Position numbers and translations under genes: made by a program
Source: a virus
IMG/VR virus record: IMGVR_UViG_3300044680_000048
Coordinates: 1 to 64,000 of that record
DNA: 64,000 nt
Direction: 5' to 3' (one strand)
The notes under the pieces: model-generated
Told to the model about the DNA's origin: nothing
The model's database searches: none
The model's input: the letters and a program-made list of their open reading frames with translations, nothing else
Part shown: in pieces, positions 7,742 to 62,838 of the stretch
How positions within the stretch are numbered: position 1 is the stretch's first letter
Layout: every line of letters begins with the position of its first letter

Positions 7742-8104
7742 ATGGGAACTAATTTTTACTTAGTTAAAAGATGCTCTTGCGGGGAAGCAATAGTGGGAGA
7801 TAAGATCCACTTAGGTAAATCCTCTGCCGGATGGAGTTTTTCATTCCGTGGCTATAGAGGTCCATACAATCCCTATCAAGTTGAGAATATCCAAGAGTGG
7901 AAAGACCTTATAGAGCAGAACTGCTATGAACTAGAAGATGAAAACGGAAATAAGTGGGACATTGATGAATTCTATAAGATCTCCATCGGGAAAGCTCAAA
8001 AAATGATTGACAACGGGAAAATTCCCCGCTATCATGCAAAGGAATTTTGGGAAGATTCTCAAATGATAGACGGGCACTCCTTCAGTTTCGGAGAATTCAG
8101 CTAA
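7742..8104 (+). CDS. hypothetical protein (120 aa)
   Basis: ORF track; AGGAAA upstream. Confidence 0.65.
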   Translation: MGTNFYLVKRCSCGEAIVGDKIHLGKSSAGWSFSFRGYRGPYNPYQVENIQEWKDLIEQNCYELEDENGNKWDIDEFYKISIGKAQKMIDNGKIPRYHAKEFWEDSQMIDGHSFSFGEFS

Positions 8105-8319
8105 TGGTAATGATGAAGATGTCTAGCTCAGCTATATTAAGTATTGATTTTGATCCTTTACAGAATCATCTTGATGTTTTATATAAAAATGAAAGTCTTT
8201 ACCGGTATTATGATATCCCACCGGAAATAGTAGAAGCATTAAACCAAGCAACCAGCAAAGGAAGATTCATTAATGAAACAATTAAGCCAAACTACAGATG
8301 CCAGAGGATTTACAGGTGA
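8104..8319 (+). CDS. KTSC domain protein
   Basis: SSAILSIDFDP..LDVLYKNESLYRYYDIPPEIVEALNQATSKGRFINETIK matches the KTSC signature; ATG 8104 overlaps the upstream TAA. Confidence 0.7.
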   Translation: MVMMKMSSSAILSIDFDPLQNHLDVLYKNESLYRYYDIPPEIVEALNQATSKGRFINETIKPNYRCQRIYR

Positions 8320-8413
8320 TAAATTAATCTGTATTTTCCTTTGGTCCCTCTTGCTTATTCCGTTCCTTGTGTTATCTTTTTTAGGTGGCTGTTTTTCAAT
8401 CTTGAGGCTTTAA

Positions 8414-8632
8414 ATGGATCACCTTCCGCCATATTGGGCATTATTGGACACTAAGAAACCCCTGGTACTTCAAGAACACTTCCAGCAGTGGCAATACTTA
8501 CCTTGCATCTACTGCGACGGGAAGGGAACTTGGAACAAAACAAACGATCCGCAAGAAGAAGAATTCTGCATTAAGTGTGACTCATCAGGTGTTTTAAGAG
8601 AAAGGAGATTTAGCTTATGTTCGAAAACCTAG
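8414..8632 (+). CDS. DnaJ-type CxxCxGxG zinc-finger small protein
   Basis: CIYCDGKG and CIKCDSSG motifs. Confidence 0.55.
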   Translation: MDHLPPYWALLDTKKPLVLQEHFQQWQYLPCIYCDGKGTWNKTNDPQEEEFCIKCDSSGVLRERRFSLCSKT

Positions 8633-8775
8633 AAATTTTTGAGTTTGCGGATGGTTGGGCAGCGAAAGCCCCCAACTTTCTCATCACTGCTGAAACAGAA
8701 GAGAAGTTAAATACACTCTTGGCGGAAATCCTACAAGAAGAATCGGCAAAAATTCTTTTAGGAGTAAAAGTATGA
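8617..8775 (+). CDS. hypothetical protein (52 aa)
   Basis: AAAGGAG 9 nt upstream of ATG 8617; ATGA coupling to the 8772 gene; below track cutoff. Confidence 0.55.
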   Translation: MFENLEIFEFADGWAAKAPNFLITAETEEKLNTLLAEILQEESAKILLGVKV

Positions 8776-9155
8776 AATACTTTCTTCAATACGAAGAGAC
8801 TAGAACCGGTGGAGATGTTTGTGAAGGAGATGAGGGGAACGTGTGGCCCTCATATGAGGATACGGATATTAACTTAGACCTTAAGTTTCTGGCTACAGAT
8901 AGAACAAACTGTACTCATTGGTGTATAGAAGAGTTTGAGTTAGAGCACCCCTTAGATTCCGCTTTTGTTTTAGTTGCTCGATATGCATTTGGAGATACTT
9001 TTAGCAGGACGTGTGGCAATTTTGAATTCTTGGGAATATTCAATTCTGAAGAAGAGGCTCAACTGAAAGCTTCTAAAATTAATGGACCCAAACGTTGGAA
9101 CGACTATTTCGGAGGATTTGAGGGGTTTGAGATAACAGAGGTTCCTATTAAATGA
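8772..9155 (+). CDS. hypothetical protein (127 aa)
   Basis: ORF track; ATGA coupling. Confidence 0.65.
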   Translation: MKYFLQYEETRTGGDVCEGDEGNVWPSYEDTDINLDLKFLATDRTNCTHWCIEEFELEHPLDSAFVLVARYAFGDTFSRTCGNFEFLGIFNSEEEAQLKASKINGPKRWNDYFGGFEGFEITEVPIK

Positions 9156-9370
9156 TCAGAATTGTCTGTCTAGTAAACTATGAGGATGTAGGCTGTTTTG
9201 CCGTAGCCTCTAAGCCTTATCGGAAGCAGGATAATGACTTTTTAACTGACCGGCGGGAAATACCCCTTAAATGGGCACAACAAGCAGTTAAAGCCTGGAT
9301 TAATAGAGGCGGAGATTACCTTTCTGCTCCTTTTGATGGAGTAGAAGATTTTAATCTAATAAGGGCTTGA
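9152..9370 (+). CDS. hypothetical protein (72 aa)
   Basis: ORF track; ATGA coupling. Confidence 0.6.
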   Translation: MIRIVCLVNYEDVGCFAVASKPYRKQDNDFLTDRREIPLKWAQQAVKAWINRGGDYLSAPFDGVEDFNLIRA

Positions 9371-50899: not shown

Positions 50900-51220
50900 A
50901 TGGATGATAAATTTAAGCTTAAAAGAACTGGAACACCCTTATCCGAAATTTGGAGCATTTACTCTGGACCCACAGGTAGAAGCGACTACCTATTAAAAGA
51001 ATTAGAGGGTTTAGGATTTGATTCTGTGGAGAGGCTTTATAGTAGTATTATAGGGTCTCCCGAAGCTTTTCAAGTGTTTTTTAAAGTTCATGGGGAAAAC
51101 CTAAGTACCCTTATAGGGATACTTGAAGCGTATCTTCCCGTTTCTTTTATTAAAGAGGTTAAGGAGTATATAGCTCCTGAATATGGTATGGGTCTAGTCT
51201 TGCCGGAAGACTTTGGATAG
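50900..51220 (+). CDS. hypothetical protein (106 aa)
   Basis: ORF track; TTCAAA-17-TACTAT promoter-like sequence upstream. Confidence 0.6.
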   Translation: MDDKFKLKRTGTPLSEIWSIYSGPTGRSDYLLKELEGLGFDSVERLYSSIIGSPEAFQVFFKVHGENLSTLIGILEAYLPVSFIKEVKEYIAPEYGMGLVLPEDFG

Positions 51221-51555
51221 TGGGACAGCGGGGAGAATATGAAGACCTTATGGGAAAGACTTTTACTGATCTATATGTAGAGGGTCCGGCAGACTCTAGA
51301 TGGGAATCCGGAAAGGTTAAATACTACTGGACAGTAAGATGTTCCTGTGGTACTATTTTTGAGGCTAGGGGGTCAGCACTTAAGCACGGTTCCCCCCAAT
51401 CTTGTTTTCCCTGTGGAAGAAAGAGAGCCGGAAGAACTAATCACATCAGAAAATCTAAAATTATGCAGTGTATTAGAGAAACTGTTAAGGACATGTATGA
51501 TGCTGGAGTTATGTCAGAAGAAGAATTTACAAACTTTAAGGATATATTTGTATGA
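51220..51555 (+). CDS. zinc-ribbon protein (111 aa), GTG start
   Basis: CSCG...CFPCG pattern; TAGTG overlap. Confidence 0.55.
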   Translation: MGQRGEYEDLMGKTFTDLYVEGPADSRWESGKVKYYWTVRCSCGTIFEARGSALKHGSPQSCFPCGRKRAGRTNHIRKSKIMQCIRETVKDMYDAGVMSEEEFTNFKDIFV

Positions 51556-51767
51556 AGATTGAAAGATACGAGAACTATTATGGAGAGCAAGAGCTAACTT
51601 TCTGGTTTGGTAATAATTATTTCATGTTTGACTCCAAGGGTAACTTTGAATTCTTAGCTGCAGGTTATGGTAGTGGTTATGAAGTTGTTCCAGATATAAC
51701 TAAACGGGACACACTTAGCAAAGAAGAACGGGAAATCCTTATTAAATTCCTTCAGGAGATTGAATGA
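51552..51767 (+). CDS. hypothetical protein (71 aa)
   Basis: ATGA coupling. Confidence 0.55.
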   Translation: MKIERYENYYGEQELTFWFGNNYFMFDSKGNFEFLAAGYGSGYEVVPDITKRDTLSKEEREILIKFLQEIE

Positions 51768-52246
51768 AAGGACAGAAGCAAGTATTCTCTAGTACATATC
51801 AAAATTGGGAGACTCCTAAACCTTTATTTAATAGGTTACATGAAAGATTTAATTTTACTATAGATCTTGCCGCAAGCCCTGATAACCATCTATTACCTAG
51901 ATTCTATACAGAAGAAGATAATTCCCTAATTCAATCTTGGGTAGATGAACGGGGGTTCACTAACCCTCCTTATAATATAGCTCCAGAATTCATTGAAAAG
52001 TCCTATATGGAAGTAGCTTATGGGTGTATGGAGTTGAATCTTTTATTGGTTCCGGCAAGAACTAGTAACAAAGAGTGGGAAGAATTTGTATTCCCTCATG
52101 CGGAGGAGTTGATTTTTATCAATGGACGTGTTAAGTTTGGTAATAGTCCAACCGGTGCTCCTTTTCCTTCTGTTTGTATACTCTTCCGGGAAGACAATTG
52201 CGGGAAAGGTCCTAAAGTCAGTTGGATATCAGTAAGAGGTGAATAA
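51764..52246 (+). CDS. dam: phage-type DNA N6-adenine methyltransferase
   Basis: ..YQNWETPKPLF..FNFTIDLAAS..N.....YTEEDNSL...W....FTNPPY (NPPY catalytic motif); ATGA coupling. Confidence 0.82.
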   Translation: MKGQKQVFSSTYQNWETPKPLFNRLHERFNFTIDLAASPDNHLLPRFYTEEDNSLIQSWVDERGFTNPPYNIAPEFIEKSYMEVAYGCMELNLLLVPARTSNKEWEEFVFPHAEELIFINGRVKFGNSPTGAPFPSVCILFREDNCGKGPKVSWISVRGE

Positions 52247-52317
52247 TGGGGATAGATAGAAGCGCGGCAGTCTGTTTTGGGGCAAAGATTCCCTATAAAC
52301 TTATGCAGGAAAGTTAG

Positions 52318-52578
52318 ATGAAACGGGAAGATTTTAAAATTGGAGAACAGTTTTATACAGGTTCCGGAAGATGGATATGTACAGATAAAGGTACTAAGAA
52401 TATACTAGCAATAAAGACGGAAGACCATTCCGGCAAGGCTCTTTTAAGTAATCAAGACTGGGAATGGATTAAGGGGAAACATGAAGACATGCTTCATGTT
52501 TCAATCTTCCATATTAATGATTGGGATGGATGTTCCTTAAAGAATGATTGGGCTAATAGAGTAAGGCGGGAAAGATGA
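52318..52578 (+). CDS. hypothetical protein (86 aa)
   Basis: ORF track; AGGAAAG upstream. Confidence 0.55.
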   Translation: MKREDFKIGEQFYTGSGRWICTDKGTKNILAIKTEDHSGKALLSNQDWEWIKGKHEDMLHVSIFHINDWDGCSLKNDWANRVRRER

Positions 52579-52702
52579 TTGAAATTAAAATTCCTTTTTG
52601 ATATAGGGCAAGATGTCTACCCTATTAGATTATTTGATTACGAAATCATAACCTGCCCCAATTAAACATGATGAGAGTCCTAAAAGAGAAATAACCTAAA
52701 GG

Positions 52703-52730
52703 AAAGCCTCCCAATTGGGAGGCTTTTTAT
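52703..52730. terminator. bidirectional intrinsic terminator between convergent operons
   Basis: AAAGCCTCCC-AATT-GGGAGGCTTT with T-runs on both strands. Confidence 0.85.
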
Positions 52731-52760: not shown

Positions 52761-53954
52761 CTAAGAATGCCCTGTGAGCAAACAGCGGCTCTGAGCAAGG
52801 GGGTCACATAACGATATTAAATCGAACAGAACACTCAAGTGATAGAGGTTAGTTACTGGCCTTTCCACTAAAAAACTTCCAGGCTTGCCTTGCATATGGA
52901 ACTTAGCCAGTTGAGGAAGCGAAGCACGGAAGAACATAGTAGTTCCGGTAGGCATCTGCATATCTCTGATGAAGGGGATAGCAAGTCCGTTATTGTCTTC
53001 GTAGATCATTTGGATATCGCCAGGCTCAAGTCCTAGTCCGGCAAGTCTCTTTACGAGTACTTCGTCATAGCCCATTTTTGCCAGCGGCTCATTGCCGGGG
53101 TAGCGGTTGATCATCAAGTTACGGATAACAGGGATCTGGGTGTTATTGGTTAAAGCAACAACATCATTTAGAGCGTCAAAACCGAAGAAGGCAGCTAACT
53201 GTGTGATAGCTTGAGCAATCAAAGCATCAGTGAGGTTTCCCCCGCCTACTGCAATTGGTCCTACGGTTGATCTCGTTACCATACCACCAAGAGATGGGAT
53301 ATTAGGGAGAGCTTCATCGGTATTTTCCAGAGCACTCAAGAGCAGAGGGTTCATGGTCCGTTCCATACGGATCATTGCTTTCTGGATTTGTGCTTGGAGT
53401 TCATTCCGGCGGTAAGGTGATTGAGCAGCAAGTTCTTCCGCCATAAAAGAAACGTTAATCTGTTGACCGATAGCCATCAGGGTATTAGTTCTTTCCGACA
53501 AGACTGACTGTTGAACTGCTGGGAGATTACCTTCTACGTTGAAAGCTGACAATTGGTCATTACCAATGGTTTCTTCCGGAATCCGGATCTGATAATCAGT
53601 TGCCGGGAAAGAAGGTTTCTTTTTCAGGATGTTAAGGAATTTGGCTTCCGTATTAACAATCTGAGCAATATAAGGATAGAGACTTACGATTCTTACTGGA
53701 CCAAGGTCTACTCCGGTAACGTCTTTATTAACTACCATAGTAGAGAATGCGTCCGAGGAGTCGGTATTCATTCTTACCGGCATATTCTTTAGAAGACGGC
53801 TAACCTTTTCACGGGTTTGGCTATCTTTGCACTCTTGGTACAAGATAACATCGATAGGTTGCGGATCAGCTTTCTGAATCGGAACCAGAGCTTGGTTCCC
53901 CGCACTCTTGTTTTGAAGATTAGATACCAGATCTTCTGCGCCAAATTGAGACAT
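52761..53954 (-). CDS. major capsid protein candidate (397 aa)
   Basis: Strong AAGGAG RBS; directly downstream of the protease/scaffold gene; higher GC/codon bias typical of a highly expressed gene; positional inference. Confidence 0.65.
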   Translation of the reverse strand: MSQFGAEDLVSNLQNKSAGNQALVPIQKADPQPIDVILYQECKDSQTREKVSRLLKNMPVRMNTDSSDAFSTMVVNKDVTGVDLGPVRIVSLYPYIAQIVNTEAKFLNILKKKPSFPATDYQIRIPEETIGNDQLSAFNVEGNLPAVQQSVLSERTNTLMAIGQQINVSFMAEELAAQSPYRRNELQAQIQKAMIRMERTMNPLLLSALENTDEALPNIPSLGGMVTRSTVGPIAVGGGNLTDALIAQAITQLAAFFGFDALNDVVALTNNTQIPVIRNLMINRYPGNEPLAKMGYDEVLVKRLAGLGLEPGDIQMIYEDNNGLAIPFIRDMQMPTGTTMFFRASLPQLAKFHMQGKPGSFLVERPVTNLYHLSVLFDLISLCDPLAQSRCLLTGHS

Positions 53955-53964
53955 TAATAACTCC

Positions 53965-56139
53965 TTACTGTTGGGCCCAATTGGCCATGATGAAACTGTC
54001 TAGTGTGTTTGCCGGTTGAGTAGCTTTATTTACTTCAACAGCTTTGTTCTGGATCTCAAGAACTTTTTCTACAAGTTCTTCCGCACTGGTGGAAGCAGCG
54101 GCTTCTACAGCCTTACTAATTGATTCGACCATTTTGGCAAGCTCCCCAATCAGTTTTGATTGATCAGCCTGGATTGATTTCTGTGCTTCTACAGCAGCGA
54201 CAAGCTTGTTGACTTTTTCAACAGCTTCCTTGTTAGAAGCAACAAGAGACTTTATTGTTAGGTTGGTTTCCGGAGAGAGTGAAGCTTCTACAGATTTACC
54301 AAGCTTTACGGAAGTCGGATCTTTATCTTCCGATTTTCCTAGTTTGACGGAAGTAGGGTCACTATCTTCGTTAGTAATTTTCTTAGTGTCGTTATCACCG
54401 TCGCGGTCTTCACCGCCAACACCCTCATCACCATCAGGTTCTTTGTGGGCCTTAACACACTCATCATCTTCTTCAGACTTCATGCACTCATCTTCTTCAG
54501 CAGAAGCTTTAGTGGAAACATCTTCGTACTTAGAAGGATCAGCATCACCGGAACCCGGATTTAGCTTAACCGCATCTTTTTCTTCTTTTGCCACTGATTT
54601 ACTATCCTGTATAGTGTTAACGTTAATTATTGTAGCGGAGGATTTATTTTGTGTTAAATTATCTCTCAAAGAAGAGGCATGAACATTTAGAAGTGTCCCA
54701 AAAGCCTCATAAGAATTAACTGCCCCTTCTGGCAATTCCATATTATGTGTCCAGATGGTAGGGCGTTCAGCAGATTTAGCAGCTTCAAGACGATGATGAC
54801 CATCAATCATATAGATATCTCCATTGCGGGAGATAGTCATTCCACCATCAAAATTTCCTTCTTTAACAAATTGTGCAACTTTTTCTGCGTCTACGGCAGA
54901 CTGAGTTGGTTTAACTTGTTCCGGACGAACCTGAACAAGGGGAAGACCCTTATATAATCCTGGATTACTAATCAATGCCTTAACAACAGAAAACTCAAAT
55001 TCACTTTTAAGAAAGTCTGGATACAGGGTTTTATTGATGGATTCTGTTAAAGATTTCTGTTCAGGAGGTCCGGAAGAATCTATTTCTCTTTTCCAAGCAG
55101 CCTTAATCTTAGATTTTATATGAGAAAGTTCTTCAGAGGAGTACTCTGAAGAATTCCTTTCTTGATGAATGTAATTCCAAGCTGCTCTGATGTGCTCTTC
55201 TGTATCTATAGGATAACGAGGTTTTTTATCTTCCTGGTAACCAGGATCTGCGTATTCTACATCCCCATAAGGTTTTTTCGCTTTCATCATTGCTGCTTCA
55301 GGAGCATTATCACACTCATGAGCATTATCTTCCGGTTCATCTCTATAGGCTTCTGGATCAGTAACTCCACCACCATTAGGGGGAGAAATAGTAGCTTTAT
55401 CCTCAAGGGCTTTTTGTTGAAGAGATTTGATTGCGGTTTTCATTCGAGCGGGAACATTTACAACCGATCTTTCTAGGTAGCGGGCAACTTTATTAATAGT
55501 TACTGAAACAGGTTTGCCGGATTCATCCACCTGTCCCGGTTCATGTGGGCAGGCATAAGAATAAATAGACATGTTACAGGAACTACAAACTTTATGGTTG
55601 GGGTCTACTAAAATACCTACAGAAATAGAACGAACAGTACCGTTTTTTATTCCTTTTATAAGAGGAGCATGGTAATCCTCAAGAGGAATGCCCCATGTTT
55701 CTCTAGGACCTTCTTTAGTCATCCTAGAAGAAAGGCAGATACCTAATGGAGGGAGATTATTAAGATTATGTGAATGATCCATGAGGACGGGAGTAGCTGG
55801 TCCACCGTCTACTATGTCCTGTTCAGCATCTTTGGAGAACTTATCTCCTTGTACATCAACCTCATTTCCAAGGCCTAGAACGTTAATATTACGTAAAACC
55901 ATCCACTGGTGGGCTTCTTGGGGCACAACAGAAAATTCATTAATGAGTTTCATTTCTTCCATAGAAGGAGATAAACTTTGATTCTCCTCTACCATTGTCT
56001 TAGCAGCTTTAAGAGTTCCGGTACTTCCCATACTCTTATACATAACTAAGCCGGTCTCTTCTTCAGGTTCCGGCAAAGACTTCTTGATAGAAACTGCTCT
56101 TACTTCTTCCGGAAGGACTTTTTTAAATTCTTCTACCAC
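53965..56139 (-). CDS. prohead protease (HK97/S78-like) - ParB/Srx-like domain - acidic linker - coiled-coil scaffold fusion (724 aa); GTG start uncertain
   Basis: Protease block ..PVLMDHSHN..PPLG...GTVRSISVG; YADPGYQ..KPRYPIDT..HIRAA motif; ParB-like ..VRPEQVKPTQ...IDGHHRLEAAK (about 54740-54950); Asp/Glu-rich linker; helical C-terminus. Confidence 0.72.
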   Translation of the reverse strand: MVEEFKKVLPEEVRAVSIKKSLPEPEEETGLVMYKSMGSTGTLKAAKTMVEENQSLSPSMEEMKLINEFSVVPQEAHQWMVLRNINVLGLGNEVDVQGDKFSKDAEQDIVDGGPATPVLMDHSHNLNNLPPLGICLSSRMTKEGPRETWGIPLEDYHAPLIKGIKNGTVRSISVGILVDPNHKVCSSCNMSIYSYACPHEPGQVDESGKPVSVTINKVARYLERSVVNVPARMKTAIKSLQQKALEDKATISPPNGGGVTDPEAYRDEPEDNAHECDNAPEAAMMKAKKPYGDVEYADPGYQEDKKPRYPIDTEEHIRAAWNYIHQERNSSEYSSEELSHIKSKIKAAWKREIDSSGPPEQKSLTESINKTLYPDFLKSEFEFSVVKALISNPGLYKGLPLVQVRPEQVKPTQSAVDAEKVAQFVKEGNFDGGMTISRNGDIYMIDGHHRLEAAKSAERPTIWTHNMELPEGAVNSYEAFGTLLNVHASSLRDNLTQNKSSATIINVNTIQDSKSVAKEEKDAVKLNPGSGDADPSKYEDVSTKASAEEDECMKSEEDDECVKAHKEPDGDEGVGGEDRDGDNDTKKITNEDSDPTSVKLGKSEDKDPTSVKLGKSVEASLSPETNLTIKSLVASNKEAVEKVNKLVAAVEAQKSIQADQSKLIGELAKMVESISKAVEAAASTSAEELVEKVLEIQNKAVEVNKATQPANTLDSFIMANWAQQ

Positions 56140-57221: not shown

Positions 57222-58061
57222 CTAAAAGCTGCCCCTTAAGGTTTCATAGGCTAACTCATATCCATGGTTTATTAGGGACTTCCGGTCCTTCTTATAGTTA
57301 AAGTCTATTAAATTACGCTGAATATTACTCTCTGCCTTTACTACTATAACTTTAACCTCTCTAAACCGAGAGTTGGTAGATACTATGGAGTTGATTGTCT
57401 CAACAAATTTAAGTTCTTTCGATATGGAGATATAAGACGGTAATGATAAACCAGCCTGCATTACATCTAAAATACTGTTTATCTTGTAACAAGTCTCCGG
57501 CACTTGAGGTTGAAACAAGACAACAACATCGGCGCCCATTTCTACTGCCTGAGAAACCGAGAAGTTATTACTTAGCCCACCATCTAGGTATTGTTGACCA
57601 TTAAGAGAAACAGGCTCAAATAAAACTGGAGGTGAAGCAGATGCTCGTAAGAACGCCGGCAAGTCTTCTCCTAACTCATGAACGTCTTTAGTAACACCGC
57701 TCCAATCTGTAAAATTAGTAACGTTAATTAAGAATTTCTTAGGGTTTCCGGCAACTTTACCATTATCTATATATTTCTTTAATGTTCTTTCCAGAGGAGA
57801 AGAGTCGTATAAACAGAACTTACCGGAAAGAAAGTTACCAAATGGGTTTAAACTATAAACATCCGGATTCTTAATATTCATCCACAGATCTAGCATTTCA
57901 TCTATTCTATTTTGATGAAGAAAAAGACCATTCAGGCTACCAACGGAAGTTCCATGAAGAACGTCATAAGTAAGTCCTAATTCATGCCAAGCTTTAATCA
58001 TCCCGGCTTGTAGGATGCCCATTGAACCGCCGCCGGAAAGACATAGGTGGATATTAGACAT
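57222..58061 (-). CDS. patatin-like phospholipase
   Basis: All four patatin blocks are present: SGGGSMG (oxyanion hole), GTSVG (GxSxG nucleophile), ASASPP, YLDGG (catalytic Asp). Confidence 0.85.
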   Translation of the reverse strand: MSNIHLCLSGGGSMGILQAGMIKAWHELGLTYDVLHGTSVGSLNGLFLHQNRIDEMLDLWMNIKNPDVYSLNPFGNFLSGKFCLYDSSPLERTLKKYIDNGKVAGNPKKFLINVTNFTDWSGVTKDVHELGEDLPAFLRASASPPVLFEPVSLNGQQYLDGGLSNNFSVSQAVEMGADVVVLFQPQVPETCYKINSILDVMQAGLSLPSYISISKELKFVETINSIVSTNSRFREVKVIVVKAESNIQRNLIDFNYKKDRKSLINHGYELAYETLRGSF

Positions 58062-58497: not shown

Positions 58498-61400
58498 TTA
58501 CTCCGCATCCATAAAGACTGACTTTGTAGCTATGTTGACAGCCGTTGTGCTTAGTGTGGTGATCGTCTCGACATTGCACGCAACACCTGATATCGGGACA
58601 TCTGTCGTTGTAGACGCAGCTAGTACTGACGCACCGCCGTTAGTACTGATGTAGAAACTTACTGTGCCAGGTATAGAGCAATCAACCGCCATTGTGTATA
58701 CGGTGTTGTAATTTATTGGGACCGTCGTAGTGATCACGTTTTGCGCTGAGCCTGTGCCAGTTACACAACGCCAGTACTGAGTAGCATCTACTGCGGGCGA
58801 GTAGCGAAATGCGGCCACGCTAACTGCGGTCCCAGGTGTATTCGTTCCTGTGCAATATGCAGCACCACCGCCTAGCATCCCCACCCAGATCCGGCAATTC
58901 TGAATGTCTGTAGAACTTGATCCGGTCCTAATAGTCGCTATATATCTCGGTCCTGGGTACGTATTATTGAATACTCCCCAGTTTGCATTTGCTTGCGAAG
59001 AGCTACCGGCGTAGGTGCCCGAGGTAGTTGAAGTAGCAAAGTTGACTGCGAAATCTAATCCAGCAGTACCCCACAGCGTCGTAGCAGTGCCCGAATTTGT
59101 GGGACTAACTGTGTTCAAACCTCCCGAAAAATATACAGAAGTCGTTGCGACTGCTGGATAACTATAGGTTCCCCATCGCCGCGGACGAGCGCAGGTGATT
59201 GACGGGAACATATAACTATTAACCCACGCACCCGTCCCAGATCCAGTATTTTGAATTGTCTGCCCGATGTTGCCACCGGATGGTAAGCCGCCTCCACCTC
59301 CACCAGAGGCTGTAGAGGCAATAGTTATTGTGCTATTAGTAGAATTAAGAGTTAATGTAGTATTGGACCCGGCAACTAATGCATTAGTTAAAGCTGAGTA
59401 TATATCAGTAGCTACAGGTGCTCTAAAAGTAGGCTTGTTTGCAGCTCCTGTTGTAGGTCCAAATAACCCTGTTCCTGAAGCTTGATTAATTAGAGAAAGT
59501 TGAAGAGTTCCGTTAGCTGTAAGAGGAGAATTTGTTGCTGGAGAGGTAAAAATTACATTATCTGTAGTTAATCCAACAGAGGTTAAAGCCCCAGAAGCAT
59601 AATTACTTAAGGTTATAGAATTAGCCGCATTACTAACTGTAATTCCTACACCAGTTATATTAGCCGGACTATAAGATCCTCCAGAAGTAGATCCTATAGG
59701 TATTTGACCATCTGTAGGGACAGTAGAAACTCCAGTTCCACCTGAGTAGACACTGGCTATCTGAGGCTTGATAGTTCTCCAACCACTAATTCCATCACTT
59801 ATAACGCCCATGACTTGGAATTTCAGCATGGTTTTGGATGTAGAACCGCCATCAAAGGTATCGGTTCCATTAGTAGTTACAGTACAAGCATTAGTCCCAG
59901 TAACAGTATTATTATTAAAATAAAATACTTCTGCTACAACACTTGAAGCAGCCGGGAGAATCAAGGTTACAGGAGCAGTTGAGGCATCCATATTCTGGTA
60001 GCCCGGAGAAGTATTGGTTAAAGTTGCACTAACTGTAGCTGAAGCGAATCCTTGGAATAAATTAACATAAGCCGGGAGTCCATTAACTACTCCTATTGCT
60101 TGAGAAGTTAAACCAACTCCTAAAGCAGACTCTACATTGGCATTTGTGAAGTAAGGAATATCTCCCATAGTTCCTACTGCCGAAAGATTAATCTGTGGAG
60201 TTGAAGTTGAATTGGTTACATTAACTGCAATTGAAGGAATAGAACTACTGGCAGATACAGAACTTACTGTGCCGGAACCTCCTCCTGAAGCAGTAGAGGC
60301 AATAGTAATAACACTTCCATTATTAGTTAGAGTAATATTATTTCCGGCAGCTAGGGCTCCAGTAAGATCACTACCCGTAAGGTTCCTAAATGTAGGAGCT
60401 GCATTACCACCACTTGCTGGACCGGCAAAGATAAGTCCTGAGGCTTGATTTACAAAAGTTCCTGTTAAAGTTCCAGAATTTATAACAGGAGAGCCTGAAA
60501 CAGTAAATATGGTATTAGGGAGACTTAATGCTACAGAGGTAACTGTCCCATTGGTATTTGAGCTTCCGGCATTAGAAATAATGTTTAAAGTATTTCCATT
60601 GTTTGTTAATGAAAGGTTACTTCCACTAACTGTAATTGCATTAGTTAGGTCACTTCCTACTATATTGCGATAAATTGGAGAATTTGGACTTCCAGAAGCT
60701 GGACCACTTAAGAAAGTACCAGAGGCTGCACTTGATAGATTAAAACTTAAAGTTGGCGTAGTATTTGAAGTGCTAACTGATGTTGTAAAAATTGGATTGG
60801 CAGTGCCCGCTGAAAAAGAAGTTACTGTCCCACTAGTATTAGAAGAACCAGCAGCGCTGATAATAACATTAGAACCATTGTTATTGACTGTAACATTAGT
60901 TCCGGCTTGAATAATTGATCCTAAATCATATCCAACTAAATTCCTGTAAGAAGGACTTCCCACAGCCCCACTTGCAGGTCCAGATAAAATTTGACCAGAA
61001 GCTGTATTGGATAGACTAAAACTTAAAACTGGAGTAGTAGTTGAATTAGCAACTGAAGTTGTGAACACGGGATTAGCCGAACCAGCCGAAAAGTTTGTAA
61101 CGGTTCCTGAACTAGAGCCACTTCCAGCTACTGCTGAAATAGTTAGAACTCCTCCACTATTATTAAAGTTTATATTAGCCCCAGCAGCAAGACTTCCAAT
61201 TAAATCATTACTATTTAATGTCCTATAAGTAGGAGCAGTAGAACTACCTGAAGTTGGACCAGCTAAAAAGGTTGCCGAAGCTGCATTGGAAATAGTATAA
61301 GAAATGGAAGGTGCAGTAGTAGGGTTAGAAACCGCACTTGTAAATATAGGAGCTAGGTTTCCAGAAGAGACAGAAGTGACTGAACCATTCCCGCTCGATG

Positions 61401-62838
61401 TTGAAGATATTATTATATTTCCATCGGAATTTCCAATGTTTATATTACTTCCAGCAGTTAAGCTATTAGGAACCCAACCTGTGGCAGATCCTATTAACAG
61501 TTGTCCAGGACTATTACCTTGAGGAAGATCTGTTAAGACCATTGCTCGAAAATTAGGAGTTCCAGAAGTGGAACTTGGTGAAGCAAATATCTGTCCAGAA
61601 GATTGTGAAGATAAGGTGTGAGAAATTACGGGAGTAGTAGTAGGGTTAGTTGTACTAGAAGTAAACAGTCCGGTAAGTCCTGAGTCACTTACGGAAGTTA
61701 CTGAACCTGAAGCATTATTAGTAGCAGTAATTGTTATCTGAGAACCATTATTGCTTAAACTGATCCCAGAACCATTATTGAAGTTTCCGAAAATATCATT
61801 ACTGATAATTCCCCGATAACTTGGGGCTCCAGCAGTGCCAGAAGCAGGTCCGGCAAGAAATTGTCCTGAGGCTTGATTTGTTAGAGAAAAAGTAGTACTA
61901 GGTGTTGTAGTTGAAGTAGCTGTGGTGGAAGTAAAGATAGGAGAAAGGTTGCCAACAGCGACACTTGTTACTGACCCACTAGCTAAACCAGTTGCGGAAA
62001 TAGTTCCACCAGAAGATATGTTTATATTACTTCCAGCAGTTAAAGTAGGAACTACATCAGAAGCTGTTAATGGTCTAAATCCAGGAGTGGCATTTCCACC
62101 AGAGATTGGTCCAGCATACACCTGCCCTGAAGCTTGACTAGTAACAGTAAAGGTTAAATTAGGTGTGCTGGTGGGTGTAGCTACGGATGTAGTAAAAAGC
62201 CCACCAGCATTTCCAGAAGTGAAACTACTTACTGTTCCACTACCACCAGAAGAGGCAATGACTAGGCTACTTCCCACTAAGGTTAGAGTAATATTTGAAC
62301 CCGCAGAGAGGGCAGAAATTAAATCTGAACCAACATGTAATCTATAGTATGGAGTTGCCGCAGACCCTGTTACAGGTCCTGCTAAAAACTGACCAGAAGG
62401 AGCAGAAGATAAGAGAAAACTTAATGCTGGTGTGGAAGTGGGATTGGAAACTGAAGTGGTGAATATAGGATTTGCTATTCCAGCCGAAAAGTTTGTTACT
62501 GTTCCTAATCCAGCTCCAGAAGACCCAATAGTTAATGTATTGGTCCCAGCAGTTAGAGAGATTCCGGCACCTGCTACTAACTTGAAAGAATTAGGAAGGT
62601 TGGACGTTTCATTAGCTTGAGTTACATAGGTGCCGGAAGGATAACCTCCACCAGCAGCCGAGACTGTTAAATTTCCACCTGAGAAGGTTAACGTGATATT
62701 ACTTCCGGCAGCAATAACACTTGCTCCGGTAAGAGTAGAGTTAGAAGAAGTTAATAGATAAGGAGCATTCGTAGGCGCTCCACCAGAGCTTCCTCCGGTA
62801 GATGAACTAAAGAATATTGGGGGAAAGAAAAACTTCAC
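58498..62838 (-). CDS. giant repeat fibre protein (1446 aa), GTG start
   Basis: At least 9 tandem ~88-100 aa modules (G[ST]V[TS][SN][VF]...IFT[TS]..[ST]TP..[SF]...Q/A-ASG..[FL].GP.SG....P.[YF]R......D......AG.N[IV]...) plus a 262-aa distinct C-terminal domain. Confidence 0.8.
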   Translation of the reverse strand: MKFFFPPIFFSSSTGGSSGGAPTNAPYLLTSSNSTLTGASVIAAGSNITLTFSGGNLTVSAAGGGYPSGTYVTQANETSNLPNSFKLVAGAGISLTAGTNTLTIGSSGAGLGTVTNFSAGIANPIFTTSVSNPTSTPALSFLLSSAPSGQFLAGPVTGSAATPYYRLHVGSDLISALSAGSNITLTLVGSSLVIASSGGSGTVSSFTSGNAGGLFTTSVATPTSTPNLTFTVTSQASGQVYAGPISGGNATPGFRPLTASDVVPTLTAGSNINISSGGTISATGLASGSVTSVAVGNLSPIFTSTTATSTTTPSTTFSLTNQASGQFLAGPASGTAGAPSYRGIISNDIFGNFNNGSGISLSNNGSQITITATNNASGSVTSVSDSGLTGLFTSSTTNPTTTPVISHTLSSQSSGQIFASPSSTSGTPNFRAMVLTDLPQGNSPGQLLIGSATGWVPNSLTAGSNINIGNSDGNIIISSTSSGNGSVTSVSSGNLAPIFTSAVSNPTTAPSISYTISNAASATFLAGPTSGSSTAPTYRTLNSNDLIGSLAAGANINFNNSGGVLTISAVAGSGSSSGTVTNFSAGSANPVFTTSVANSTTTPVLSFSLSNTASGQILSGPASGAVGSPSYRNLVGYDLGSIIQAGTNVTVNNNGSNVIISAAGSSNTSGTVTSFSAGTANPIFTTSVSTSNTTPTLSFNLSSAASGTFLSGPASGSPNSPIYRNIVGSDLTNAITVSGSNLSLTNNGNTLNIISNAGSSNTNGTVTSVALSLPNTIFTVSGSPVINSGTLTGTFVNQASGLIFAGPASGGNAAPTFRNLTGSDLTGALAAGNNITLTNNGSVITIASTASGGGSGTVSSVSASSSIPSIAVNVTNSTSTPQINLSAVGTMGDIPYFTNANVESALGVGLTSQAIGVVNGLPAYVNLFQGFASATVSATLTNTSPGYQNMDASTAPVTLILPAASSVVAEVFYFNNNTVTGTNACTVTTNGTDTFDGGSTSKTMLKFQVMGVISDGISGWRTIKPQIASVYSGGTGVSTVPTDGQIPIGSTSGGSYSPANITGVGITVSNAANSITLSNYASGALTSVGLTTDNVIFTSPATNSPLTANGTLQLSLINQASGTGLFGPTTGAANKPTFRAPVATDIYSALTNALVAGSNTTLTLNSTNSTITIASTASGGGGGGLPSGGNIGQTIQNTGSGTGAWVNSYMFPSITCARPRRWGTYSYPAVATTSVYFSGGLNTVSPTNSGTATTLWGTAGLDFAVNFATSTTSGTYAGSSSQANANWGVFNNTYPGPRYIATIRTGSSSTDIQNCRIWVGMLGGGAAYCTGTNTPGTAVSVAAFRYSPAVDATQYWRCVTGTGSAQNVITTTVPINYNTVYTMAVDCSIPGTVSFYISTNGGASVLAASTTTDVPISGVACNVETITTLSTTAVNIATKSVFMDAE
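59290..62505 (-). repeat. tandem ~270-290-nt coding modules of the fibre gene
   Basis: Repeats are evident in the protein and in the periodic antisense shadow ORFs of the track. Confidence 0.85.

Follow-up and report, generated by a model that had tools for sequence, protein, structure and literature searches.

A probable prohead protease gene with in-line accessory domains and a predicted nested scaffold product in an uncultured phage

The reading frame and its setting

The stretch of DNA analysed here (the window, 64,000 nucleotides (nt) long) covers positions 1 to 64,000 of the IMG/VR record IMGVR_UViG_3300044680_000048, which stems from an uncultured phage, totals 111,990 bp and has a GC content of about 0.36-0.46 in 2-kb windows. 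Its minus strand carries at 53965-56139 a gene with a GTG start, the uninterrupted open reading frame (ORF) of which encodes 724 amino acids (aa) and appears to specify a polyprotein of protease, cargo and scaffold. A preliminary description of the window had proposed that this single ORF combines four parts, namely an HK97/S78-type protease at about 55450-55950, a ParB-like segment with a DGHHR motif at about 54740-54950, a highly acidic stretch and a helical C-terminus adjoining the capsid gene, and all tests of these parts that could be run were passed; the ORF has 0 internal stops and no frameshift or stop splits it. The description holds as far as these parts go, but it is incomplete, since a DUF6582 domain had been overlooked and the gene probably makes more than one product; a CxxC...CxH insert in the protease and a conserved internal start codon had likewise gone unlisted. 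The assigned start of the gene is supported by the orthologues P0003-P0006, whose N-termini align with the GTG.

The gene for the major capsid protein (MCP) follows after 10 nt, at 52761-53954 on the minus strand, and encodes a protein of 397 aa that matches SU10_MCP (PF17236, E 1.2e-7) and is 50-61% identical to the products of the MCP genes found after the orthologues. A capsid-sized ORF likewise lies directly after the P0002, P0003, P0005 and P0121 genes, assigned to SU10_MCP by Pfam for P0005 and unannotated for the rest, and among the loci compared the protease gene stands directly upstream of an MCP gene in the window, L001, L007, L008 and L013 and of an unannotated ORF in L010. With a portal gene (PF04860) furthermore found upstream in L007 and L008 (6-8 kb away) and in L011, the gene occupies the place between portal and MCP genes that is a trait of HK97-type proteases. 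The N-terminal region of the window MCP carries a 15-aa insertion (LLKNMPVRMNTDSSD...) at 53730-53790 (aa ~57-75) that three orthologous MCPs lack. A delta-domain scaffold on the MCP was considered and rejected, the N-terminus of this protein containing proline, being poorly conserved and having, in the window copy, the said insertion.

Searches by tblastn with the whole ORF, its DUF6582 segment, its ParB segment and the MCP found no match among 50,697 INPHARED phage records, and these negatives are real for that collection, since the Dam methylase of the window, used as positive control, matched 1512 INPHARED records. An NCBIfam scan of the 724-aa protein returned nothing, the PHROGs gave no match for 10 neighbouring structural ORFs, and an alignment-based search for related loci found nothing among viral contigs, while metagenomes gave one useful distant locus, L011.

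The protease and the accessory domains

The N-terminal region (aa 58-245; 55405-55968, minus strand) is probably a divergent HK97/S78-type prohead serine protease, as judged by its invariant blocks, by an hhalign alignment to S78 proteases and by the ranking of its structural matches. The blocks that are invariant among the orthologues read D-H-x-H, P-x-G, S-V-G and E-x-S-x-x-N-x-P-x-R, and an alignment of eight family members matched a profile built on the S78 domains of 85 proteins with PF04586 annotation over 143 columns with E 9.6e-6 and a probability of 82.6%, an improvement on the E of 0.003 obtained with six query sequences that came with the addition of P0121 and the distant relative L011. 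The motifs brought into register with those of S78 are D-x-x-G-D, His, S-[VI]-G and E-x-S-x-V-x-x-P-A, and the candidate catalytic residues are His122 of the DHSH motif (55774-55776), adjoined by the invariant His124, and Ser173 of S-V-G (55621-55623). In keeping with the motifs and spacing typical of the family, every orthologue has His122 and Ser173, which fall on the MHQ and S-I-G motifs of S78, respectively. Their spacing is 51 residues, and the corresponding H65 and S114 of HK97 gp4 are 49 residues apart. When the AlphaFold 2 (AF2) model of the domain was compared with known structures by Foldseek, T4 gp21 and herpesvirus proteases headed the list and made up most of it, with weak scores (E 0.04-0.3, template modelling (TM) score ~0.3). 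Homology to the S78 proteases is likely, although the domain falls short of membership by the curated Pfam threshold.

Inserted in the protease at 55543-55587 (minus strand) is a CxxC...CxH element resembling a zinc knuckle (Cys185, Cys188, Cys197 and His199), the four residues of which are invariant in 6 orthologues and also present in L011. Typical S78 domains lack this insert and show a gap in its place in the hhalign alignments.

The first putative cargo module, DUF6582 (PF20223), spans aa 285-355 (55075-55287, minus strand) and is the sole part of the 724-aa protein that exceeds a Pfam threshold (aa 285-351, E 3.8e-17, 62.8 bits against a cut-off of 27.3). Matches to this domain made up the bulk of the first homology search (470 proteins at E <= 0.001), and many relatives of this module of ~70 aa are 60-77% identical across very different phages and prophages. 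A tally made by hand of the 119 non-self matches listed found DUF6582 together with the S78 protease family PF04586 in 47 cases, with PF14550 (S78_2) alone in 2, with the Mu protease I family PF10123 in 7, with PF09979 (DUF2213) in 6, with the capsid family PF05065 in 5, always alongside PF04586, and with the portal families PF06074 and PF05136 in 4. From this nearly constant fusion to protease, scaffold, capsid and portal families we can conclude that DUF6582 sits on proteins that face the capsid interior. A comparison with PDB sequences gave a chance-level match only and hence no solved relative, and a literature search on DUF6582 found no papers.

The second putative cargo module (aa 361-495; 54655-55059, minus strand) contains the ParB-like segment of the preliminary description (aa 398-467), and a ParB/sulfiredoxin (Srx) fold is well supported for it by modelling. 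The AF2 model, built on an alignment of 21 relatives, has a predicted local distance difference test (pLDDT) score of 92.7 and a predicted TM score of 0.84, and the best 50 PDB matches listed by Foldseek all belong to the ParB/Srx superfamily (best E 1.4e-4; probability 0.90-1.00, nearly all 1.00), including sulfiredoxin, ParB, Noc, Atu1540, 1vk1, SerK, SbnI, KorB and PadC, so that the proposed fold was not rejected. A Foldseek search of BFVD likewise returned phage ParB/Srx proteins, several of more than 1000 aa and one named as a carrier of a polyvalent-protein-associated domain. The phosphate-binding G-x-x-R signature of the superfamily (GERR, GCHR or DGHHR) and the Gln motif upstream of it are furthermore present, as Q53 of the PTQ motif (aa 411-413) and D86, G87, H89 and R90 of DGHHR (aa 446-450; 54790-54804), numbered within the module, are invariant in 21 family members.

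At the level of sequence the matches are weak (PHROG 1033, E 1.2e-4; Helicobacter pylori ParB 4umk, E 0.005). ParBc_2 (PF08857) is the best Pfam match in 18 of the 21 family members and matches the isolated segment of the window protein with E 2e-4, but at 22.0 bits this stays below the curated cut-off of 23.6, while ParB_N (PF02195) in Pfam and TIGR00180 or any other NCBIfam model give no match to the module at all. The module has the same fold as the ParBc_2/DGHHR branch of the superfamily (PF08857; 1vk1, SerK, SbnI) and the same D-G-H-H-R at a strand-helix junction, but the C-terminal domain seen in SerK and SbnI is missing from it, and it begins with a helix specific to its own family. Among 1.84 billion representatives only 96 reached E <= 1e-3 in a profile search, and most of these are free-standing proteins of ~150 aa that comprise the whole module including this helix. 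Three copies of the same DGHHR subfamily are found in the MuF-domain protein P0165, and a viral contig has it within an ORF of 3092 aa. A partition ParB can be ruled out for the domain, because it is without a helix-turn-helix (HTH), a dimerisation domain and a ParA context: the module is ~125 aa long and flanked by DUF6582 and the acidic linker, neither a ParA motif nor parA/parS is found with it, and ParB structures align to it over their N-terminal domain only.

Both modules come and go among the orthologues. The ParB module is present in the window protein (P0001), P0002, P0003, P0005 and P0121 and absent from P0004 and P0006, whereas DUF6582 is present in P0001 and P0004, stands right at the N-terminus of P0002 and is missing from P0003, P0005, P0006 and P0121. 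No free-standing copy of the ParB module lies within 10 kb of the gene at the P0004 locus (L007), nor does the window contain a second one. L011 encodes what may be described as the bare chassis, a protein of 328 aa with protease, knuckle and coiled coil and without cargo, between the portal and MCP genes. Conversely, other enzymes are found on related head proteins: P0015, P0088 and P0105 (locus L009, 6001-8745) have a 2H phosphoesterase, with both HxT motifs readable, between an S78-like N-terminal region and DUF6582, P0015 matching the anti-CBASS Acb1 family (CBASS, cyclic oligonucleotide-based antiphage signalling system) with an E of 2e-4 that lies below the threshold, and the DUF6582-bearing P0065 joins a rubrerythrin/ferritin domain to a protease of Mu type. 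It would seem, then, that protease-scaffold proteins carry enzymes as cargo more widely. The window protein indeed has the features by which polyvalent proteins are recognised, effector domains on a virion-internal anchor in a late-gene context, in that two accessory domains are attached to a protease-scaffold protein encoded in the head module.

The predicted internal start, the putative scaffold region and the candidate cleavage sites

Even those orthologues that have no cargo keep the sequence VNTIEDS(I)V, and for this reason the corresponding DNA was compared in seven orthologues (P0001 of the window, P0002-P0006 and P0121). In the window an AGGA at 54605-54608 precedes an in-frame GTG at 54592-54594, codon 516, and the two together form a putative internal translation start (54592-54608, minus strand). 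At the aligned position the GTG recurs in P0002 (behind GAGGA), P0003 (AAGG), P0005 (GAGGA) and P0121 (AAGGA), and is replaced by TTG in P0004 and ATG in P0006 (both behind GAGGA), so that an in-frame start with a Shine-Dalgarno-like motif 7-12 nt upstream is found in 7 of 7 orthologues. GTG makes up 28 of the 282 Val codons in these genes (9.9%), yet all five of the Val codons at the start position, and this is the only combination of start codon and Shine-Dalgarno-like motif that is positionally conserved within the genes. On these strong comparative grounds a nested scaffold protein is predicted: the gene probably makes a second product of about 200 residues from codon 516, which in the window would be 209 aa long (53965-54594, minus strand) and consist of the acidic part followed by the helical C-terminal part, and which in all orthologues has a predicted length of 181-227 aa, that of the full-length protein being 466-729 aa. 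Since all cargo modules lie upstream of the internal start, cargo would be found on the long, protease-bearing isoform only. The sigma-70-like site that precedes the internal start (54657-54629) was given no weight, because such matches are fewer than in shuffled sequences (2 against 7.8).

The acidic stretch reported earlier corresponds to aa 496-615, which with 32 D+E and 18 K+R has an isoelectric point of 4.4 and a net charge of -14. Motifs common to the orthologues in this linker are ATI..VNTIEDS, LNPG.GDADP.KYE and a repeated EDDEC(M/V)K, and the region 54400-54560 (aa ~527-580) in particular shows, conserved across orthologues, repeats of (E/D)DDEC(M/V)K with an invariant Cys together with LNPG.GDADP.KYE and GDEGVGGED.DGD.DTK. 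Metal binding and docking to capsid or portal are possibilities for these motifs.

Further towards the C-terminus, and inside the nested scaffold region, the peptide DPTSVKLGKS is duplicated in tandem (aa 594-619; 54283-54360, minus strand), and Tandem Repeats Finder (TRF) reports a 39-nt x 2.0 repeat with 78% matches at 54293-54369, the units being 54322-54360 and 54283-54321. The preliminary description had claimed a duplicated peptide of 13 aa ending in E(D/V) and differing in synonymous codons; the duplication and the synonymous codons are real, but the identity extends over 10 aa only, with EDK following in copy 1 and VEA in copy 2. The accompanying claim of conservation at the protein level is borne out, since 7 of the 10 shared codons differ at the third position with 0 replacements, and as the probability that 7 random substitutions are all silent is ~2e-5 by simulation, the peptide can be taken to be under purifying selection. 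Similar motifs are found in some orthologues, as DPT[SR]L[KR] twice at the same place in P0121 and once, as a DPI variant, in P0005.

The final ~110 aa are conserved in all orthologues, and the C-terminal domain (aa 616-724; 53968-54294, minus strand) has by composition and conservation the appearance of a helical domain for scaffolding or capsid binding. The core of this helical end, the adjacency of which to the capsid gene is as first described, has 0 Pro and 1 Gly over aa 625-705 and an a/d heptad occupancy of 6/8, and L011 has an obvious coiled coil where the window protein has its helical tail. From this composition, from its position and from the fact that the MCP has no delta domain we infer that the domain is a capsid-binding scaffold. 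The C-terminus also gave weak matches to chaperones of tail assembly (PF17388, E 0.24; phrog_393, E 0.045), which were set aside as spurious hits from helical low-complexity sequence.

The duplicated peptide had also been suggested as a maturation cleavage site, but another motif is a better supported candidate. The HK97 capsid protein is cut between K103 and S104, which are followed by L105 (PMC10275583), and the related phi12 protease likewise cleaves after K or R (PMC8569155). The candidate K/S-L sites of the window protein are identical to this HK97 site, and K-S-[LVIM] occurs 8 times in it against 1.35 expected (~6-fold, with 0 of 2000 composition-preserving shuffles reaching 8) and is also enriched in 4 of 6 orthologues (P0002, P0003, P0004 and P0121). 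None of the sites (0) lies within the three folded domains: those at aa 20, 35, 238, 362, 514 and 615 are in the leader and linkers, and those at aa 630 and 654 in the helical tail. Site 238 lies just past the protease, site 362 follows DUF6582, site 514 comes behind the ParB module and beside the internal start, and site 615 falls in copy 2 of the repeat. It should also be mentioned that the capsid proteins have a common K-S-(A/G) near residue 16.

Several features flank this head module. Downstream of the capsid gene a GC-rich hairpin at 52701-52728 (12-bp stem with 6 GC pairs; a consensus match only) likely marks the end of the transcription unit of protease/scaffold and MCP. Just downstream of the capsid gene the minus-strand structural genes are furthermore interrupted by a small plus-strand island (50900-52578), which includes the gene of a Dam-type N6-adenine methyltransferase (51764-52246, PF05869, E 1.1e-23). 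On the other side, between the head genes and a giant repetitive ORF, lies a gene for a patatin-like phospholipase (57222-58061, minus strand; PF01734, E 8.5e-30), at the position of which L008 has a GDSL lipase (7981-9201), which suggests that the structural module conserves a lipase gene, be it of one family or the other. The repetitive ORF itself (58498-62838, minus strand) encodes 1446 aa rich in Ser, Thr, Gly and Ala with many divergent repeats at the protein level, of the type '...GSVTSVS.G.L.P.FTS.V.NPTT.P..S..L..Q.SG..LAGP.SG....P.YR'; it has no match in Pfam or the PHROGs and no repeat at the DNA level by TRF, L008 has a similar gene of 1632 aa in its place, and it may encode a fibre or head-fibre protein.

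Fate of the accessory domains and comparison with known systems

On balance we lean, if only slightly, towards the reading that this is a head-assembly gene of a tailed phage which, as lambda C/Nu3 does, gives rise to two products in one frame, and that the cargo borne by the protease is packaged, freed and injected. The long product of 724 aa would comprise the S78-type protease, DUF6582, the ParB/Srx domain, the acidic linker and the helical capsid-binding tail, and the short product of ~209 aa, translated from the GTG at 54594, would comprise the acidic linker and the tail and serve as the bulk scaffold. Because this tail is common to both products, the long one may be expected to join the scaffold inside the procapsid, bringing with it the protease and, at protease stoichiometry, the covalently attached cargo. 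Once the shell is complete the protease would cut the linkers between the domains, probably at the HK97-type K/S-[LVIM] sites, whereby the scaffold would be destroyed and the folded DUF6582 and ParB/Srx domains freed. Being folded and too large to leave through the shell, these would be kept in the head and enter the host with the DNA, where the ParB/Srx domain may act as an effector of NTP-binding nuclease, NTPase or phosphotransferase type. Packaging and release of the ParB domain are plausible; the same subfamily is found in MuF-anchored and in giant polyvalent phage proteins.

A number of observations weigh against this reading. The protease domain has no match in Pfam, NCBIfam or the PHROGs by hmmscan, its AF2 model is of moderate quality (pLDDT 69.7) with Foldseek E-values of 0.04 and above, and the C-terminal domain has no detectable homology to known scaffolds. 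K-S-[LVIM] is not enriched in P0005 and P0006, some orthologues have the motif, as KSI, within the zinc knuckle of the protease as well, and copy 1 of the repeat has KSE, leaving a full match in copy 2 only. The relatives of the ParB module are found either on contigs of ~1 kb, which are uninformative, or, where the context is readable, in non-structural surroundings, as exemplified by P0138, which is fused to DUF6166 and encoded beside an endonuclease VII gene, and as these relatives are mostly free-standing, the ParB domain is not virion-specific. Finally, HK97-type proteases usually digest themselves, and the cargo might therefore simply be degraded.

Among the alternatives, it seems to us unlikely that the ParB/Srx and DUF6582 modules do their work in the capsid or during packaging, be it by binding or organising DNA, by contacting portal or terminase or by gating the exit of the scaffold through a nucleotide. 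ParB-fold proteins are classically DNA-associated NTP switches (PMC12704722), and the domain would sit right where the DNA enters; its last two helices (aa 477-494) moreover resemble a short HTH-like pair, in a region that is conserved in the free-standing relatives, but the module is without the full HTH and dimerisation domains of a true ParB. More importantly it is dispensable, as P0004, P0006 and L011 do without it and L007 has no substitute within 10 kb, and such variability is typical of accessory conflict genes and not of core assembly parts.

About equally improbable in our view is that the cargo works late in infection in the cytoplasm, where it could degrade host DNA, deplete nucleotides or blunt late immunity, and that its share in the procapsid is digested with the scaffold. 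The self-digestion of HK97-type proteases agrees with this notion, and since prohead proteases, scaffold or capsid proteins are reported as CBASS triggers (bioRxiv), the Acb1-like 2H phosphodiesterase on some DUF6582-bearing head proteins would be sensible beside such a trigger. A capsid-targeting tail would however sequester the enzyme away from the cytoplasm, and the occurrence of the same domains on portal and MuF proteins likewise argues for the head interior.

That the inserted modules are non-enzymatic and merely passive filler or spacers by which internal volume or protease geometry is tuned is very unlikely, for while the free variation of cargo content among orthologues is in agreement with it, the invariance of the nucleotide-binding signature (Q53, D86, G87, H89 and R90) in 21 family members and the 60-77% identity of DUF6582 in very different phages indicate strong functional constraint. 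Dispensable modules with strictly conserved motifs thus argue against a core assembly role and against filler alike. Least of all can the fusion be put down to a missed frameshift or stop or to chimeric assembly, which is hardly credible, since the ORF is continuous, codon-level conservation runs across the junctions and the same continuous fusion of protease, ParB module, linker and tail is found in P0002, P0003, P0005 and P0121 from four other samples or assemblies, which with the window makes five independent assemblies; nothing was found that speaks for an artefact.

Returning to the packaged-cargo reading, protease genes with nested scaffolds are known: Nu3 of lambda is read in-frame from inside gene C, I and Z of Mu are arranged likewise, and gpO of P2 is a single protease-scaffold protein. 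As in the window, the reading frame of lambda gpC/Nu3 begins with the protease and ends with the scaffold, the capsid gene following directly, and a shorter scaffold is made from an internal in-frame start, as predicted for the window. That protease and scaffold of this phage come from a single gene is stated in PMC8508860, citing Shaw & Murialdo 1980. The lambda protease is however ClpP/S49-like and not S78, as seen from the alignment of the MD8 and lambda proteins to ClpP (PMC8508860). Neither lambda gpC/Nu3 nor Mu gpI/gpZ nor P2 gpO has folded accessory domains between protease and scaffold, which the window gene has, and while the internal start of Nu3 type is known for lambda, that of the window is predicted from comparison.

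HK97 gp4 (MEROPS S78, PF04586) is probably homologous to the window protease at the profile level with His and Ser motifs aligned, but it is a small stand-alone protein (~225 aa), the scaffold of HK97 being the delta domain of the capsid protein, and the window protein differs from it by having no Pfam match, a zinc knuckle, a 57-aa leader and ~480 extra residues. In work by Duda, Oh and Hendrix of 2013, gp4 is said to enter the procapsid via a C-terminal targeting region, as the long product of the window gene would. The gp21 protease of T4 is of the U9/S77 type and cleaves after Glu. T4 does provide a precedent for cargo in its internal proteins and Alt, which are non-essential, reach the scaffold core by targeting, are cut back by the prohead protease and are then kept in the head and injected against host defences (PMC12373910), but unlike the window fusion IPI-III and Alt are separate genes with a short N-terminal capsid-targeting sequence.

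A close parallel to the ParB module comes from Iyer, Burroughs, Anand, de Souza & Aravind 2017, who report that head-packaged polyvalent proteins, as well as P1 DdrB, contain ParB domains (PMC5512222). In polyvalent proteins and MuF- or portal-anchored effectors, domains of the ParB/Srx fold are likewise covalently joined to a component of the head interior, their genes lie among the late genes, and packaging and injection are predicted for them (PMC5512222). The anchor of the window protein is by contrast a maturation protease with a scaffold tail, it carries only two cargo modules, and text searches of PMC5512222 did not find this anchor architecture. Nested protease/scaffold genes on the one hand and head-packaged ParB-fold effectors on the other are thus known separately, whereas the literature searched gave no instance of accessory enzyme domains set into the chain between a protease of S78 type and the start of a nested scaffold. 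The text of a PNAS 2025 survey of the ParB fold never mentions capsid and mentions protease once, and a paper on phage 7-7-1 that lists both ParB and a prohead protease proved to concern separate genes and not a fusion.

If the cargo reading of the window gene is true, the protease-scaffold gene would be a natural and modular loader of capsid-internal proteins and would represent a third anchoring strategy beside the targeting peptides of T4 type and the MuF/portal fusions. The role of DUF6582 on hundreds of head proteins would then be explained, new candidates for injected anti-defence enzymes would emerge, including the Acb1-like phosphodiesterase, and a design rule for loading capsids of the HK97 fold would follow, namely insertion between the protease and the internal scaffold start with flanking K/S-L sites. 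Whether this amounts to a general route, by which effector domains (ParB/Srx, DUF6582, 2H/Acb1-like, rubrerythrin) are placed in-line between protease and nested scaffold start, freed at K/S sites and injected as anti-defence or takeover factors, is a more doubtful proposition that we put forward tentatively, but such a general version, with DUF6582 and other enzymes as scaffold-borne capsid cargo, would matter more.

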